Shown here: in pieces, positions 571 through 40,216 of the stretch
Layout: each line of letters begins with the position of its first letter
Position numbering within the stretch: the first letter of the stretch is position 1
IMG/VR virus record: IMGVR_UViG_3300036766_000337
Coordinates: 1 to 40,347 of that record
Source: a virus
Taxonomy: Duplodnaviria; Caudoviricetes
Reading direction: 5' to 3' (one strand)
Length of the DNA: 40,347 nucleotides
Position numbers and translations under genes: made by a program
Notes under the pieces: generated by a model
Database searches by the model: none
What the model saw: the letters and a program-made list of their open reading frames with translations, nothing else
Told to the model about the DNA's origin: nothing

Positions 571-1604
571 ACGAAGAAGCGATTGAGATCATAAAGAGGT
601 TCGTAGCATACGAAATGGACAAACAAGAGCCAAAATGGGGCGGATGGAGTGCGCTTACCATTAACGCCCGCCAATTCCTCGCAGACTACGACGCGAAGAA
701 TGCCGCAGTACTGGGGTTTCCATCGTCTGCGGCACCTGCTACTCCTGCCTGCCGTAGCGACGGTAAACCATGTCCTACACCGATTGGAGGTATGGGTAGA
801 GGCAAATCACTGTGCGAGCAAAGTGGGATGTGCCAGCGAACTAATATGGAGGCCCTACCAACTGTACATATTGCACCTGCTACTCCTACGGATGGGACTG
901 TTAGAGCATTCCGCACGATAAAGGAAATTGTCTGCGGAGAACGTGCTCCGTATTGGAACAGTGAATCAGCAATCTACAACACGAGAGGATTGATCGCAGA
1001 TGTCTGCGACAACGCCATGCTCGCCGCAGCCCCTGATACTCCTGCGCCTGCGGCTACTGCTACAGCAATGGACGTGATGGTGCAGCGTTTTCTAGGCTGG
1101 CCTGTGCCGTTCAGCGTATGCGCCGACCTGTGCGCAACACGACAGGAGAAAGGTCGCAGCGGCACGAACCTGTTGAGCGCAATAGAGGCGCGAGAAATGT
1201 TGACCTATGTTCTAGCCGCCGCCCCTGCCAACGATGCGCGGGATGCTCAGAAACTAGTCGAGTGTAAACACCGAGGGAAAATCATTCGAGGGAATGACTA
1301 TGGAGAAGATAAGGCATGGTGCGATGAGTGCGGAGAGATAACCTTTCATTCAGATGCACCCAATGAAGGAGAACATTTTCGGACATTCTCCGATAGAAAA
1401 AATTGGTCCGACAAACGGGTAATTGCCTTTGGATGTCAGAATGAAGCCAACCCCGTCAATAAATTGAATGATGGAAAGCGATGCGAGATATGGTGCAATC
1501 ACAACTACTGTCCATCTAAATTACGTGCCGCCACACGCGAGGCACGTAATCAGTCCGGCCCTCCGCCGGGCAGGACCCCGGATCAAAACAGGGGGAACTC
1601 GTGA
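567..1604 (+). CDS. Hypothetical mosaic accessory protein with Cys-rich modules joined by AAP/APATP linkers
   Basis: ATGA overlap with the upstream stop; long ORF; repeated gcacctgctactcct linker; CxxC motifs. Confidence 0.7.
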
Positions 1605-1864
1605 GCCATGAAAGGGAACAAATGAAAACGGATGCACAGTTGCGAGATATTCGTTTGGACGCTGCGATGAAATCGCCAGAGGCTAATAATGCTTACGGCG
1701 ATCGCGCCGTCTACAACGCAGGCCGCAAGGACGCATTCGCCGATGCGCGGGATGCGGTGCTTGATTCCCCTGAGGTCGAGGGGGAAATATCCCCAAGTGA
1801 CCTGATCCAACGACTCATCGATGCGGAGAAGCCACCAGCGAGTCAGGAAGGGGGAAGGGGATGA
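1601..1864 (+). CDS. Hypothetical protein
   Basis: Overlaps both neighbours by 4 nt (translational coupling). Confidence 0.65.
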   Translation: MSHEREQMKTDAQLRDIRLDAAMKSPEANNAYGDRAVYNAGRKDAFADARDAVLDSPEVEGEISPSDLIQRLIDAEKPPASQEGGRG

Positions 1865-2682
1865 GCAAACTCTGTATTTATCACGGGAACTGTGCGGATG
1901 GTTTTTCTGGCGCGTGGGTTGTTCGCCGTGCGCTTGGTGAAACCACAAACTTTTACCCCGGTGTGTACCAAAACGCGCCGCCAGATGTGTCCGGGCGCGA
2001 CGTGGTATTGGTGGATTTTTCCTACAAACGTCCAGTGATGGAGCAGTTAATTTCTACTGCGAAGTCTGTACTAGTGCTTGACCACCACAAAACAGCCGCT
2101 GAGGATTTGCAGAATCTATCCGGCGCGGAAGTGGTATTCGACATGGGTCGCGCAGGTAGCAAGATTGCGTGGGACTATTACTTCCCGCATGAGGCTGCGC
2201 CGCCAGTATTGCTGCACGTCGAAGACCGCGACTTGTGGCGGTTTGCGCTGCCAAAGACGCGGGAGATTCAGGCCAACATCTTTTCCTATCCATACGAGTT
2301 TGCGATATGGGATAGATTGATGGCGAGTGATCCTGCTGTCCTTGCAATCGAAGGCGAGGCAATCGAACGCAAGCACTTCAAAGACATTGCTGAACTACTA
2401 GGCGTAGTGCAAAGACGCATGACGATCGGAGGCTATAACGTGCCGATCGCTAATCTACCATACACCCTTGTATCGGACGCAGCGCACAAGATGGCACAGG
2501 GCGAGCCGTTTGCGGGATGCTATTGGGACACCGCGAAAGGAAGAATCTTCGGGTTGCGCTCAACGGACGCCGGGATAGATGTTTCCGGCATCGCTAAACA
2601 ATACGGTGGAGGAGGTCACAGGAATGCCGCAGGGTTCACCGTTCCGTTCCACGTTGCTGCTGCATTCGAGATTACGCCATGA
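1861..2682 (+). CDS. DHH/DHHA1-family phosphoesterase (NrnB-like)
   Basis: YHxxCxDG, VDFSY, LDHH, DRDLW and GGGHRNAAGF motifs. Confidence 0.92.
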   Translation: MSKLCIYHGNCADGFSGAWVVRRALGETTNFYPGVYQNAPPDVSGRDVVLVDFSYKRPVMEQLISTAKSVLVLDHHKTAAEDLQNLSGAEVVFDMGRAGSKIAWDYYFPHEAAPPVLLHVEDRDLWRFALPKTREIQANIFSYPYEFAIWDRLMASDPAVLAIEGEAIERKHFKDIAELLGVVQRRMTIGGYNVPIANLPYTLVSDAAHKMAQGEPFAGCYWDTAKGRIFGLRSTDAGIDVSGIAKQYGGGGHRNAAGFTVPFHVAAAFEITP

Positions 2683-2864
2683 CCCCGCTAACCATGACCG
2701 AGTTGCGGCGACAGTTTGAGTCGTCCCATGCGCGACTCGGTTACAAGGATTTTTCTCGTTGGAATGGAGGCGCGACCTATTCTCACGGCGCCCTGCAATT
2801 ACGATGGGCTGGCTACCTAGCCTGCGCGCGGGCTAACGGGCTGCTGAAAAAAGGAAAATCGTGA
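2679..2864 (+). CDS. Small hypothetical protein
   Basis: ATGA-coupled to the DHH gene; 61 aa. Confidence 0.6.
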   Translation: MTPLTMTELRRQFESSHARLGYKDFSRWNGGATYSHGALQLRWAGYLACARANGLLKKGKS

Positions 2865-2959
2865 TGCCCGAAGACGAACGCGAAGCGCCTGACGAAGAAA
2901 CGGTACCCTGGGACTGCGACAATCAAGGTCCACAGGAACTAGGAACAACAGAGGAATAA
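2861..2959 (+). CDS. 32-aa acidic peptide (MMPEDEREAPDEETVPWDCDNQGPQELGTTEE), not in the ORF track
   Basis: GTGA overlap with the upstream stop; aagga RBS; stop lies 2 nt before the hammerhead. Confidence 0.45.
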   Translation: MMPEDEREAPDEETVPWDCDNQGPQELGTTEE

Positions 2960-2961
2960 CC

Positions 2962-3056
2962 GTCCACTGAGGAGCTAAACTAGCGAAACCTGTAGGCAGG
3001 GCTGGGCACCCTAGATGAGTTCTTACCTCCTTCTCATCGCGCCTACAGGTCTGGAC
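2962..3056 (+). ncRNA. Type I hammerhead ribozyme; predicted cleavage after C3051 (GUC)
   Basis: Stem I gtcca/tggac; core CTGAGGA (2967-2973); stem II gcta-aac-tagc; GAAA (2985-2988); stem III cctgtaggc/gcctacagg; GTC triplet. All conserved core nucleotides are present and the element is intergenic. Confidence 0.93.
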
Positions 3057-3079
3057 ACTCAACAAACCAGGAGACCACA

Positions 3080-3139
3080 ATGGCCTTTCATGACGAAGAA
3101 GATGATTGGGATGGCTTAGACGACTCACCAGATTTCTAA
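3080..3139 (+). CDS. 19-aa acidic peptide (MAFHDEEDDWDGLDDSPDF), not in the ORF track
   Basis: AGGAG RBS (3069-3073) 6 nt before ATG; stop is followed immediately by the next RBS. Confidence 0.45.
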   Translation: MAFHDEEDDWDGLDDSPDF

Positions 3140-3151
3140 CAGGAGTTGCAA

Positions 3152-3409
3152 ATGAGTGGAGTTACTGTAACAATCTTCATCAAGAACCCAGAATCTTTGG
3201 TGCCTGCTTGCCAGGTGTATGATATAGAGCTAGTTGGTCGTGGCTTTGGAAAGCTGGCAGAAGAGCTTCTAAATGCAGTTCTGGATGATTTTGAGATACC
3301 AGCCGCCAGGCCGATGATAAAACTGCCTGACACCAAACAAGCTCTGGACACGCTTATGAATCCTGACATTTCCATTAAAGGAGGTGATCCAACTCCAAAA
3401 ACCGATTGA
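3152..3409 (+). CDS. Hypothetical protein
   Basis: AGGAG RBS at 3141-3145 favours ATG 3152 over TTG 3146. Confidence 0.65.
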   Translation: MSGVTVTIFIKNPESLVPACQVYDIELVGRGFGKLAEELLNAVLDDFEIPAARPMIKLPDTKQALDTLMNPDISIKGGDPTPKTD

Positions 3410-3434
3410 CAACTTACCCAAATGGGTGTATTAT
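3406..3434 (+). promoter_or_regulatory. Sigma70-type promoter with an inverted repeat in the spacer
   Basis: TTGACA-17 nt-TATTAT; spacer contains ACCCA-aa-TGGGT. Confidence 0.75.
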
Positions 3435-3486
3435 AGCAATTCACTGGTAATATTGGTGAGAGACTAACCAACACAAGGAGCTACAA

Positions 3487-3834
3487 ATGGCTAAGCAAGA
3501 CGTGGCAAGCAAGTTGAAGGACAGCAAAGATGTTATTAAGGTGCAGTATGACTTTGGTGACAACCTGGCTGAGAGTGTAAAGTTGTTCGGTGAAGAGGTT
3601 GTCCATTCAAGAGCAAAGGCCGCTCTGGTGATCGACCTCCAGGCATTGGTTCGCAGGATGATCAAGGCGGGGAAGAAGTCCGACGAGATCACTGCCGCCG
3701 TTGCAAAGTGGAAACCGGACACTCGCGTGGTCGTTCACAAGACCGCCGCAGAGAAGGTGCAGGAAGGTGTTAAGCAGCTCACGAAGGAAGAGCGGCTGGC
3801 ATTGCTCAAGCAGCTCCAGGCAATCAAGGACTAA
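3487..3834 (+). CDS. Small basic hypothetical protein, possible paralogue of 39642..39986
   Basis: AAGGAG RBS, own promoter, Lys-rich helical sequence. Confidence 0.8.
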   Translation: MAKQDVASKLKDSKDVIKVQYDFGDNLAESVKLFGEEVVHSRAKAALVIDLQALVRRMIKAGKKSDEITAAVAKWKPDTRVVVHKTAAEKVQEGVKQLTKEERLALLKQLQAIKD

Positions 3835-3853
3835 CAGTCGGGTCTGTATTAAG

Positions 3854-3892
3854 TTCACCAGGGGTGTAACAATTTGTTACCCCTCTGGTGAA
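3854..3892. promoter_or_regulatory. Long imperfect hairpin centred on palindrome copy 1 (GTAACAATTTGTTAC, 3866-3880)
   Basis: ttcaccag...gtaacaa-t-ttgttac...ctggtgaa; intergenic. Confidence 0.7.
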
Positions 3893-3909
3893 TTCACCAA
3901 GAAATACAG

Positions 3910-4296
3910 ATGGCTAAGGTCTACATACTGAATAAGGGTGGGCATGACTACTCCGACGCTACACGCTTTGGAGAGCTAGTGTACTGCTCTGAAGGACTTA
4001 TTCCAAAGTTCAGCACTAGCCATATGGTTAGAGTCTTCCAAGGCGCCTTCCAGGATAGTCAGAACATTGACTATATTCTTCTTACCAGTCTCTCAACTAT
4101 GTGTTCCATAGCCTGTGCGATCTTCGCCAAAAAGCATGGAAGACTAAATCTCCTTATCCACCAAGCTGGTGTAGATGGGAAAGATAATCGCTACGTTGAG
4201 AGAATTGTAAAGTTAGGGGATCAAGATGAATCAACCAAAGATAAGAATAGTTCCAACTCCTCAGCCGAGAGAGGAAGAAAAACCGCTAAGGCTTGA
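3910..4296 (+). CDS. Hypothetical alpha/beta protein
   Basis: Well-formed ORF in the operon; VYILNKGGHDY and DYILL strands. Confidence 0.75.
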   Translation: MAKVYILNKGGHDYSDATRFGELVYCSEGLIPKFSTSHMVRVFQGAFQDSQNIDYILLTSLSTMCSIACAIFAKKHGRLNLLIHQAGVDGKDNRYVERIVKLGDQDESTKDKNSSNSSAERGRKTAKA

Positions 4297-4501
4297 GGAT
4301 ACAACTCCGGCCATGCGAAGAAATATGTCAGCTAGAGAACTCATCAAGCTGATGGGAAACAAGCATGTTTTACATAAGGACTATAAGGGCAATACAAAGA
4401 TCATTAAGAAAGTCCCCAACCTGGCAGGTCGATACTCCGTTCTGGATGCTGAGCCCAGCGCCTGGCAGACGTTCAAAAGTATTCTGTCTGGAGACGCCTA
4501 A
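4226..4501 (+). CDS. Hypothetical protein
   Basis: GGGGA RBS; fills the operon gap. Confidence 0.55.
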   Translation: MNQPKIRIVPTPQPREEEKPLRLEDTTPAMRRNMSARELIKLMGNKHVLHKDYKGNTKIIKKVPNLAGRYSVLDAEPSAWQTFKSILSGDA

Positions 4502-4502
4502 C

Positions 4503-4700
4503 ATGAGTCGACATTGGAAAGACCTGGGAGTAGATTTCACTATGCTTCTGTCAGGCAGTTTCCTCTGCTGGCTCTCTGGCTACTTCCGAGAACAGTTTAT
4601 CCTCAGTTTAGTCTCCTTCATTATAGGATTTATCTTCCTGGGATTGGGAGTGCTTGGAAGCTGGCATACCATTGTACAGATTGTAAAGGATTGGGAATGA
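4503..4700 (+). CDS. Small two-TM membrane protein (MSRHWKDLGVDF...)
   Basis: GGAG RBS; two hydrophobic segments; ATGA overlap with the next gene. Confidence 0.6.
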   Translation: MSRHWKDLGVDFTMLLSGSFLCWLSGYFREQFILSLVSFIIGFIFLGLGVLGSWHTIVQIVKDWE

Positions 4701-5671
4701 AAAACTACTACGACAACACGATGATCTCGACCTACAAAGAGTGCCCTCGGAAGTTTTACTTTGCCCACAAAAGGCATTGGCGGCTGGCAGGTGCAGCCAT
4801 GCCACTCATCTTCGGGCTAGCCTGGCATGAAGCGCAGAACGTGATCTGGGGAGGTTATCAGTTTGTCACATCTGACAAGATAACCGAAGATGATCTAGTT
4901 GAGAGCGCTATGGATGAGTTTAACAGAGTGTGGGCTGATGAAGGCCTAACGCCCTGGGGAGATATGTCTCCTGATGAACAGGAGAAGGTTGGTCAACGCA
5001 ATCCTATGGTTGCAAAGGAGATGCTGTATGCTTATCTTGATAAGAGAAGATTTATCCTTGAATTGGCCAAGATTATTTCAGTGGAACAGCCATTTGCTGT
5101 GCCCATCTATCCCAACAGGCCAGATCTCTGGTACATTGGGAGATTGGATAAGAATGTTGAGTTCAACGGGGAACATCTGGTTATCGAACACAAAACTACC
5201 TCCGAGTACAAGATTGATGGAGGTTTCAAAAACCAGTTTGTCGATAGCTTCTTCCCCAATTCCCAAGTTGACGGTTACATCTACGCTGCCAATATGCTAG
5301 ATTCAAAAGTCAAACAGGTATGGGTAGATGCTGCCCTGGTGCACAAAAAAGTACATGACGCTTTCAAGTTTATTCCTGTCGTGAAGAACCCTGAGCAGTT
5401 GGACGGCTGGCTATTCGACACGCAGGAGTGGATTCGTCGAATAGAAGAAGATACTGCCAAGTGGGAGGGTGAAGAACAAAGTGGCAGCACAATGCAGTGC
5501 TTTCCAAAGAACACAAATGCCTGTCAGGGAAAGTATGGAACCTGCACCTACCGATCTATCTGCACAGCGTACTCTAACCCAGAAGTGCATGATCTGCCGG
5601 AGGGCTTCATCGAGTTTGTCTGGGCTCCTTTCGACGTTCTACACATGGAGAAGATAGGATTGACAAAATGA
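4697..5671 (+). CDS. PD-(D/E)XK exonuclease, Cas4/RecB-like
   Basis: Start at MKNYYDN. Motifs CPRKFY, FGLAWH, VEQPF, GRLD, EHKT, QVDGY and C-terminal C-x6-C-x5-C, consistent with an Fe-S cysteine set. Confidence 0.88.
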   Translation: MKNYYDNTMISTYKECPRKFYFAHKRHWRLAGAAMPLIFGLAWHEAQNVIWGGYQFVTSDKITEDDLVESAMDEFNRVWADEGLTPWGDMSPDEQEKVGQRNPMVAKEMLYAYLDKRRFILELAKIISVEQPFAVPIYPNRPDLWYIGRLDKNVEFNGEHLVIEHKTTSEYKIDGGFKNQFVDSFFPNSQVDGYIYAANMLDSKVKQVWVDAALVHKKVHDAFKFIPVVKNPEQLDGWLFDTQEWIRRIEEDTAKWEGEEQSGSTMQCFPKNTNACQGKYGTCTYRSICTAYSNPEVHDLPEGFIEFVWAPFDVLHMEKIGLTK

Positions 5672-39641: not shown

Positions 39642-39986
39642 ATGTCCAAGCAGATCAAAGGCGATCTCGTTATCGCCAGTGTCAAAACTCGCAAAGAGCG
39701 AGGTGGGCAGGCCGTGGAGTGTGTATTCACGATGGACTTCTCGAAGGCCAACCGGGAAGATATTCTCGAACTGGCTTCCCGAGCGGTGGTTATCGGAACT
39801 CAAGCGCTCCTCCGCGAGGAGAAGGACATGACAAAGGGCGCTATGCAAACGGTGGACGTGGCCGAGTTCTGCAGCCGGGAACGTGGCTCATTCGTGGTCA
39901 CGCCTGACAACCTCGCCGCAAAAGCGAAGAAATCGCTAACCCCAGCAGAGCGGGCGACGCTGATCCGGCAACTGCAATCAATGTAA
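39642..39986 (+). CDS. Small hypothetical early protein, possible paralogue of 3487..3834
   Basis: AGGAG RBS; followed by a terminator. Confidence 0.85.
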   Translation: MSKQIKGDLVIASVKTRKERGGQAVECVFTMDFSKANREDILELASRAVVIGTQALLREEKDMTKGAMQTVDVAEFCSRERGSFVVTPDNLAAKAKKSLTPAERATLIRQLQSM

Positions 39987-40002
39987 CACAAGGTAATACA
40001 GG

Positions 40003-40030
40003 CCAGGAGCGTAAGCTCCTGGTTTTTTTT
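40003..40030 (+). terminator. Rho-independent terminator
   Basis: ccaggagc-gtaa-gctcctgg followed by T8. Confidence 0.92.
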
Positions 40031-40128
40031 CGCTCAGTTTTCGCTCAGTTTCCTCTCATCTTGTGAGCTGTCTGCAGATATGCATGAGTTATCATAGTGA
40101 ACACTCAGATAGATTCAGGTGGTGATAT

Positions 40129-40216
40129 AAAGTTATAATGTTATAAAGTTATAAGATCACAATGTTACAATGTTACAATATCATAATGTTACAATATCAT
40201 AATATTATAATGTCTA
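40129..40216. repeat. AT-rich 8-mer tandem array, about 11 units (consensus AATRTYAY)
   Basis: aaagttat aatgttat aaagttat aagatcac aatgttac aatgttac aatatcat aatgttac aatatcat aatattat aatgtcta. Confidence 0.85.

Follow-up and report, generated by a model that had tools for sequence, protein, structure and literature searches.

The sequence AAAGGAGGTGATCCAAC, located at 3377-3393 on the plus strand of the 40-kb window (the whole stretch of 40,347 nt that was analysed), is a near-maximal SD without a start codon, and we tentatively propose that it works as a STAB-SD-type 30S roadblock that would bound the 5'-3' decay proceeding from an upstream ribozyme cut. The proposal, which we hold with somewhat less than even confidence, builds on the observed sequence, the observed lack of a start codon, the order and strand of the parts, and a predicted fold; it would further require cleavage, a single transcript covering 2860-3900, 30S binding, and a host with RNase J, all of which we infer. 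The window is a tailed-phage contig comprising a rightward early and replication block and a leftward structural block. The features surrounding the site are listed in Table 1.

Table 1. Positions of the features around the start-less site, numbered from the first base of the window
Feature	Position	Strand	Remarks
31-codon acidic mini-ORF	2864-2959	+	stop codon abuts hammerhead stem I
Type I hammerhead ribozyme	2962-3056	+	predicted; full core; cut expected after C3051
Exposed 13-nt loop in the stem III insert	3020-3032	+	anti-SD core UUACCUCCUU at 3023-3032
19-codon acidic mini-ORF	3080-3139	+	AGGAG RBS 3069-3073; first ORF of the predicted 3' cleavage product
Orphan 85-codon gene	3152-3409	+	AGGAG RBS 3141-3145; native codon usage
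Local hairpin over the site	3365-3389	+	predicted; 7-9 bp, -8.0 kcal/mol; buries GGAGGUG
Start-less 16S rRNA 3' end complement	3377-3393	+	encodes KGGDPT; 15-16 contiguous pairs
A-tract and sigma-70-type promoter of the next gene	3397-3434	+	TTGACA-17-TATTAT, 11/12
Conserved 115-codon gene	3487-3834	+	no function assigned; first gene 3' of the site
Long hairpin after the 115-codon gene	3842-3911	+	possible processing or termination signal

Match of the site to the 16S rRNA 3' end

The initial annotation had placed the motif at 3376-3393; the motif is present, but this interval takes in one base too many. The site was confirmed to lie in the frame of ORF 3152-3409 (codons K-G-G-D-P-T) and to lack a start codon, with no ATG, GTG, or TTG found 4-13 nt past its GGAGG; inspection by eye revealed no near-cognate start codon past the site either. 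A non-AUG start and a programmed frameshift at the site were both ruled out from the sequence. The 14-mer of the site has a single exact copy in the window.

Pairing was assessed with five 16S rRNA ends taken from fetched loci. Two of these ends (L169 and L170) formed 16 contiguous pairs with the site (3378-3393), and the other three (L147, L209, and L233) formed 15 (3377-3391) followed by a mismatch. The long complement described earlier is therefore real for these five ends, but it extends over 15-16 contiguous pairs rather than 17; pairing of all 17 nt requires a host tail with the helix-45 U and three terminal U. The claimed extension into helix 45 is likewise correct only for the three bases at the 3' end of the site, which were the only ones opposite helix 45 when the L233 end was folded, whereas 13-14 site bases face the single-stranded 16S tail. 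Invasion of helix 45 would depend on these three bases, and the conserved start-less SD family described below keeps only 13 single-stranded positions.

No other sequence in the window paired with a fetched 16S tail as strongly as the site, whose duplex energy was -30.4 kcal/mol compared with -23.9 kcal/mol for the next partner (a margin of 6.5 kcal/mol), and the duplex of the site with the 13-nt tail (-21.5 kcal/mol) exceeded that of the next-best window partner (-16.8 kcal/mol). The 22 gene starts checked in this genome match the 16S tail over only 3-7 nt. Against the -21.5 kcal/mol of the 13-nt duplex stands an opening cost of 8-9 kcal/mol at the site (8.3 kcal/mol for the local hairpin). 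This hairpin is no stronger than expected from synonymous recoding, 17% of 2000 recodings being equally stable.

The same match could be read as a fragment of host rDNA that was acquired through recombination or that serves as an attachment core, and its identity to the 16S end indeed continues beyond the part that is able to pair with mRNA. We consider this origin highly improbable, as the match ends at 16-17 nt, the flanks are not rRNA-like, the ORF continues across the match and keeps native codon usage, and no integrase was found among the 24 window proteins scanned (part of the gene set). It is also improbable that the site acts on ribosomes instead of nucleases, either by pausing those that are finishing the 85-codon gene or by soaking up free 30S subunits. 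The site does lie 5-10 codons before the stop codon, and intragenic SD-like sequences can, according to bioRxiv 2020.04.16.045807, slow translocation or stimulate frameshifts; however, one site per transcript would be a poor sponge, no canonical slippery heptamer is present 3' of the site, neither shifted frame reaches the next gene, and the site is predicted to be buried.

We further estimated how often such a sequence arises by chance. Markov models of order 1-5 gave a probability of 3-6e-5 per window for the 16-mer, which is rare for a single window, although several to tens of occurrences are then expected over approximately 250,000 windows. The 16-mer was found in approximately 150 IMG/VR stretches compared with approximately 130 for a control of the same composition and peptide, both numbers being estimates extrapolated from at least 120 matches listed per scan; because the 16-mer is barely commoner than its control, most such IMG/VR matches are chance. 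Three of the 120 16-mer matches listed were classed as rRNA and 12 had a start codon, the remaining 105 being neither. After dereplication of the matches listed, 51 of the 71 distinct 16-mer contexts lay within long ORFs and 11 lay outside any long ORF, whereas none of the 51 control contexts did so.

These figures bear on the possibility that the site has no present role and is either a chance product of the codons for a C-terminal tail (KGGDPT) under no constraint or a relic RBS whose gene has been lost. We regard this as rather unlikely, although the near-background frequency of the 16-mer, its placement within long ORFs, the number of occurrences expected over the whole scan, and the absence of the site from all relatives examined fit it well, as do two results given below, a 12-nt SD with a start codon in one relative and the failure of the site to match the model of the conserved start-less family. 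Against it, the codon choice alone has a probability of 0.006 given KGGDP, the real RBSs of this genome are much weaker, and no upstream ORF ends at the TAA before the site. Within 500 nt on one strand, moreover, the chance of the 16-mer is only approximately 2-4e-7 (approximately 1e-5 for a 13-mer), and the co-location with a hammerhead carrying an anti-SD loop is improbable if the two are independent. This position, noted post hoc in one genome, is what argues against plain chance.

The predicted hammerhead and its anti-SD loop

The predicted ribozyme lies 326 nt upstream of the site. Its core comprises CUGAGGA (2967-2973), stem II (2974-2984), GAAA (2985-2988), and a GUC cleavage triplet, so that CUGANGA, GAAA, and NUH occur in order; stems I, II, and III have 5, 4, and 9 bp, respectively, and stem III bears a two-hairpin insert. 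None of 300 first-order resampled windows yielded such a pattern. With the full core and three stems, this result supports well the upstream hammerhead predicted in the initial annotation. Rfam gave no match for 2962-3056 at the gathering cut-off, and the HH9 model scored 15.6 of 52 bits (E 1.7), below its cut-off; the low scores are attributable to the long stem III insert with the anti-SD loop, which is absent from the model. Opening the UUACCUCCUU loop costs 0.0 kcal/mol.

A loose scan for a hammerhead with an anti-SD returned chance matches, with none of the 120 listed loci reaching the type I hammerhead threshold. Tight hammerhead scans returned eight viral and nine genome matches, of which one viral match (L370) looked real and no genome match passed. 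The L370 match (1500-1600, minus strand) resembles a real type I hammerhead of another design, is directly followed by CCUCCU and then by an SD and ATG, and also scores below the Rfam cut-off. A pattern match in L585 was dropped, as it lies within the exonuclease gene and has a 2-bp stem III. No hammerhead homologue that could be used for covariation was found in the viral and genome pattern scans, the relative loci, or blastn; in phage and plasmid records, blastn with the region as query yielded short chance matches or none.

The 10-bp match between the site and loop positions 3023-3032, including one G-U pair, is real and has a duplex energy of -15.0 kcal/mol. Since any SD pairs with any anti-SD, this match is not independent evidence. 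The masking switch built on it, in which the loop would hide the site until cleavage, is not supported: 11 sites in the window pair with the loop as well or better, the site ranking 12th among its window partners and missing from the ten best partners of the longer hairpin, and nested folding, a model that leaves pseudoknots out, gave a loop-site pairing probability of only 3-4% (0.03-0.04). The loop would moreover stay on the 5' product, so cleavage at 3051 alone would not break the duplex, and co-folding of the cleavage products revealed no loop-site duplex. An extension of the duplex to 15 bp, in which 3017-3021 pair with 3391-3395, was rejected after four null tests, with 1596-5230 of 20000 randomised flanks (8-26%) matching it.

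The site could still be the dedicated partner of the anti-SD loop, which would mask it from 30S subunits, titrate the loop off the RBSs at 3069 and 3141, or refold the ribozyme. In support of such a switch, -15.0 kcal/mol is approximately twice what the loop gains with the three RBSs closest to it (-6.9 to -7.5 kcal/mol), the duplex can be drawn out to the 15 bp mentioned above, stem III is lost in a nested fold that contains the extended helix and exceeds the minimum energy by only 1.6 kcal/mol, and anti-SD-like sequences can, according to PMC12697547, pair in vivo with an RBS hundreds of bases away. The equal or better partners in the window, the low pairing probability, the randomised controls, and the co-folded products nevertheless make a dedicated partnership distinctly unlikely; furthermore, the site matches 16S rRNA better than it matches the loop. 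We grant similarly little probability to a three-part device in which the hammerhead with its 16S-tail mimic and the start-less super-SD would compete with the 30S subunit; the choice between cutting, retention, and decay up to a 30S roadblock would then depend on how available ribosomes are or on whether the orphan gene is being translated.

The predicted 3' product would start 28 nt ahead of the 19-codon ORF, which is followed by the 85-codon ORF and then by the site. The 85-codon ORF has a per-codon log-likelihood of -3.91 compared with -4.6 in the shifted frames. No homologue of it was found in IMG/VR, the sole match among two candidates in the homologue search being the gene itself; a comparison with 1.8 billion representatives returned only the gene and one repeat protein judged spurious. 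It belongs to no Pfam or PHROG family, and a weak, below-threshold likeness to the DUF5395 and DUF1902 clusters (Atlas matches of at most 0.80) provides only a lead. The 19-codon ORF has no homologue in 80 relative loci, and the 31-codon ORF may not be a gene.

No convincing promoter was found for 2860-3410. The stop codon of the 85-codon gene overlaps the -35 box of the 11/12 sigma-70 promoter, and relatives carry similar promoters ahead of the same 115-codon gene. A short inverted repeat within the promoter spacer (3416-3427) is possibly an operator. A probable paralogue of the 115-codon gene, with 28% identity, is present at 39642-39986 on the plus strand, with a strong terminator after it at 40000-40025. 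Short tandem repeats at approximately 40125-40215 precede a long run of A that closes the contig (40314-40347) and is probably an artefact of the assembly end. Immediately 5' of the ribozyme cassette, at approximately 2800-2860, the GC content falls from approximately 0.55 to 0.48, and contigs of the metagenome run meet there with loose ends and depths of 13.3 and 8.6; this location is either a variable junction or an assembly join. The contigs of the sediment metagenome DNA run that contains the stretch show no variant letters; this run, possibly the source sample, was the only one listed for the stretch, and no RNA run was among the listed ones.

Distant relatives and start-less SD elements of other phages

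The 115-codon gene and the exonuclease served as queries for retrieving relatives (9 + 5 + 80 loci, the last being 80 of 136), and the corresponding region of a Desulfofustis phage was added. The 115-codon gene is held by 63 of the 94 loci, 56 of which include 600 nt upstream (45 distinct). The co-occurrence of both motifs in related phages, which the initial annotation had put forward as a check, was not observed among the 95 loci, all of them distant: none has a match to the site of at least 13 nt or a credible hammerhead. The 85-codon gene is also absent from these 95 loci (80 + 15), all of which have at most 48% identity; the closest proteins, P0003 (68%) and P0004 (60%), are on contigs outside this set. 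As relatives at this distance do not have the parts, the cassette does not belong to the core of the group. The longest matches to the site in relatives reach 12 nt, each with a start codon; in L008, a 12-nt SD with an ATG and a 10-codon ORF lies 303 nt ahead of the 115-codon gene. Five whole relative records contain no exact 13-mer and no Hammerhead_1 match, and in two sets of relative loci, of 10 and 14, Rfam models matched tRNAs only. The A-tract with a TTGACA-type promoter occurs at the same position in 11 of the 45 distinct relatives under a strict pattern. One relative (L549:3648-3690, plus strand) carries an SD and its exact complement in a short hairpin over a start codon. Among named records, Desulfofustis phage LS06-2018-MD01 comes closest and has an equal gene order; its identity is only 25-36%, and it therefore does not identify the host.

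A conserved start-less SD element was identified in other phage contigs, consisting of AAGGAGGTGATCC, 3-4 variable bases, ATCTCCC, and then a GGG-looped stem. The element occurs in an estimated 330 IMG/VR stretches, mostly directly after a stop codon, and the spacer before CTCC has 5-6 nt in 107 of the 120 matches listed. Its members include L463, L495, L492, L459, L467, L424, L440, L387, and others (alignment A1, model R1), and its stem covaries, with a hairpin/pseudoknot switch being possible. The preceding genes are ones that we take to be holin or endolysin genes by their appearance. Weak similarity to SpF66 was found approximately 100 nt 3' of the element in 3 of 15 loci, and no Rfam family was found for the element itself. 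Start-less SD elements thus do exist in phages, with 13 positions kept and the helix-45 extension not kept. The element may already be among the motif descriptions in the supplement of PMC5737381.

The window site resembles this element in having a perfect 13-nt SD, no start codon, a position at the 3' end of a gene, and an SD core in a weak hairpin. It differs in lacking the 5-6 nt spacer, ATCTCCC, and the GGG stem, and in lying inside an ORF; its 2-nt spacer was found in 1 of the 120 element matches listed. Model R1 did not match the site at E values up to 10, and the site is, judged by these sequence features, not a member of the ATCTCCC/GGG family.

Among the 16-mer matches listed, ATCT follows in 26 of the 71 contexts compared with 0 of the 51 control contexts, and matches without the ATCTCCC signature are about at background. 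The 16-mer followed by ATCT was also found inside long ORFs (GGDPAS) in L131, L137, L152, L154, L161, L197, L200, L223, and L235, where AT-ending codons are kept in contigs of up to 68% GC while their neighbours diverge; this codon pattern suggests selection on RNA within the coding sequence. L138 and 20 related loci form a 21-member cluster with the 16-mer, no start codon, and low-GC contigs.

A possible 30S roadblock and its known counterparts

Under the roadblock reading, cleavage of the early transcript by the predicted hammerhead would occur after base 3051. RNase J, as the 5'-3' exonuclease of the host, would then remove the two small ORFs that follow the cut until a 30S subunit on 3377-3390 stopped decay near base 3372, sparing the downstream genes. 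A role for the anti-SD loop, which may modulate access to this site or to other SDs, would not be required; by analogy, the published parts would fit together without any loop-site pairing. Binding of 30S subunits or stabilisation of RNA by the site, as suggested in the initial annotation, is plausible by the same analogy. RNase J1 enters at the 5'-OH left by the glmS ribozyme, a strong SD stabilises RNA with or without a start codon, and RNase J is often present in delta-proteobacteria, according to PMC3997798. In yrzI, an upstream cut is followed by the arrest of RNase J1 8 nt before GGAGG (PMC12067863; see also PMC7509114).

The lead of the site among the 16S-tail partners in the window and the far shorter matches of the gene starts argue for a roadblock, as do the low chance of a 16-mer so close behind a full-core hammerhead, the conserved class of start-less 13-nt SDs after stop codons in other phage contigs, the 16-mer contexts outside long ORFs among the matches listed, and the Desulfofustis phage as the closest named phage. 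Against it stand the lack of conservation in the 95 distant loci, the overall frequency of the 16-mer in IMG/VR, which is not enriched, the position of the site in a coding frame and its predicted burial, the lack of a convincing upstream promoter for 2860-3410, and a closest named phage too distant to indicate the host. The strong promoter at 3406-3434 also makes a transcript without the site, and protecting the read-through RNA may therefore be redundant.

If the reading is true, a ribozyme cut and a 30S roadblock together would remove a defined mRNA segment in a timed manner while the downstream genes are spared, which would provide a concrete answer to the purpose of phage hammerheads and extend STAB-SDs from Bacillus 5' UTRs to a phage coding region. 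If the site is instead due to chance, the hammerhead with an anti-SD loop is still of note, and the start-less SD element after lysis genes is independent of it and widespread.

Hammerheads are common near phage genes, and their purpose is mostly open (PMC3088659, PMC6765202). Our literature search, made without supplements, returned no description of a natural case in which a hammerhead with an anti-SD loop is combined with a start-less SD, and the parts of PMC5737381, PMC2864571, and PMC13725137 drawn on here contain nothing specific to this arrangement. The predicted ribozyme resembles the type I hammerheads of phages and prophages (RF00163, RF02275; Perreault et al. 2011, PMC3088659) in its full core, three stems, and location between small early-region genes; it differs from those described there in the two-hairpin insert of stem III with its anti-SD loop, and the interval 2962-3056 has the type I core with a score under the Rfam gathering cut-off. 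Like glmS, it is predicted to leave a 5'-OH by self-cleavage ahead of downstream ORFs (PMC3997798, PMC6765202); unlike glmS, it has no known ligand, and glmS is not known to have a roadblock downstream.

The closest counterparts of the site are the STAB-SDs of cryIIIA in Bacillus thuringiensis and of yrzI and hbs in B. subtilis (PMC12067863, PMC3997798, PMC7509114), with which it shares a very strong complement to the 16S tail, a location downstream of an RNA cut, and a predicted 30S block to RNase J. No initiation codon is present at SD distance, a lack that the site has in common with the cryIIIA STAB-SD as described in these sources. By the same descriptions, STAB-SDs lie in 5' UTRs and their matches, including those of yrzI and hbs, cover 8-11 nt, whereas the site matches over 13-16 nt and falls within a coding frame, ORF 3152-3409, close to its stop codon and ahead of the separate promoter of the next gene; in addition, its upstream cut would be made by a ribozyme, and RNase J is presumed for its host. 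As proposed here, the cassette would work like a STAB-SD at a position other than the one described for STAB-SDs, and its predicted hammerhead varies on a class already known.
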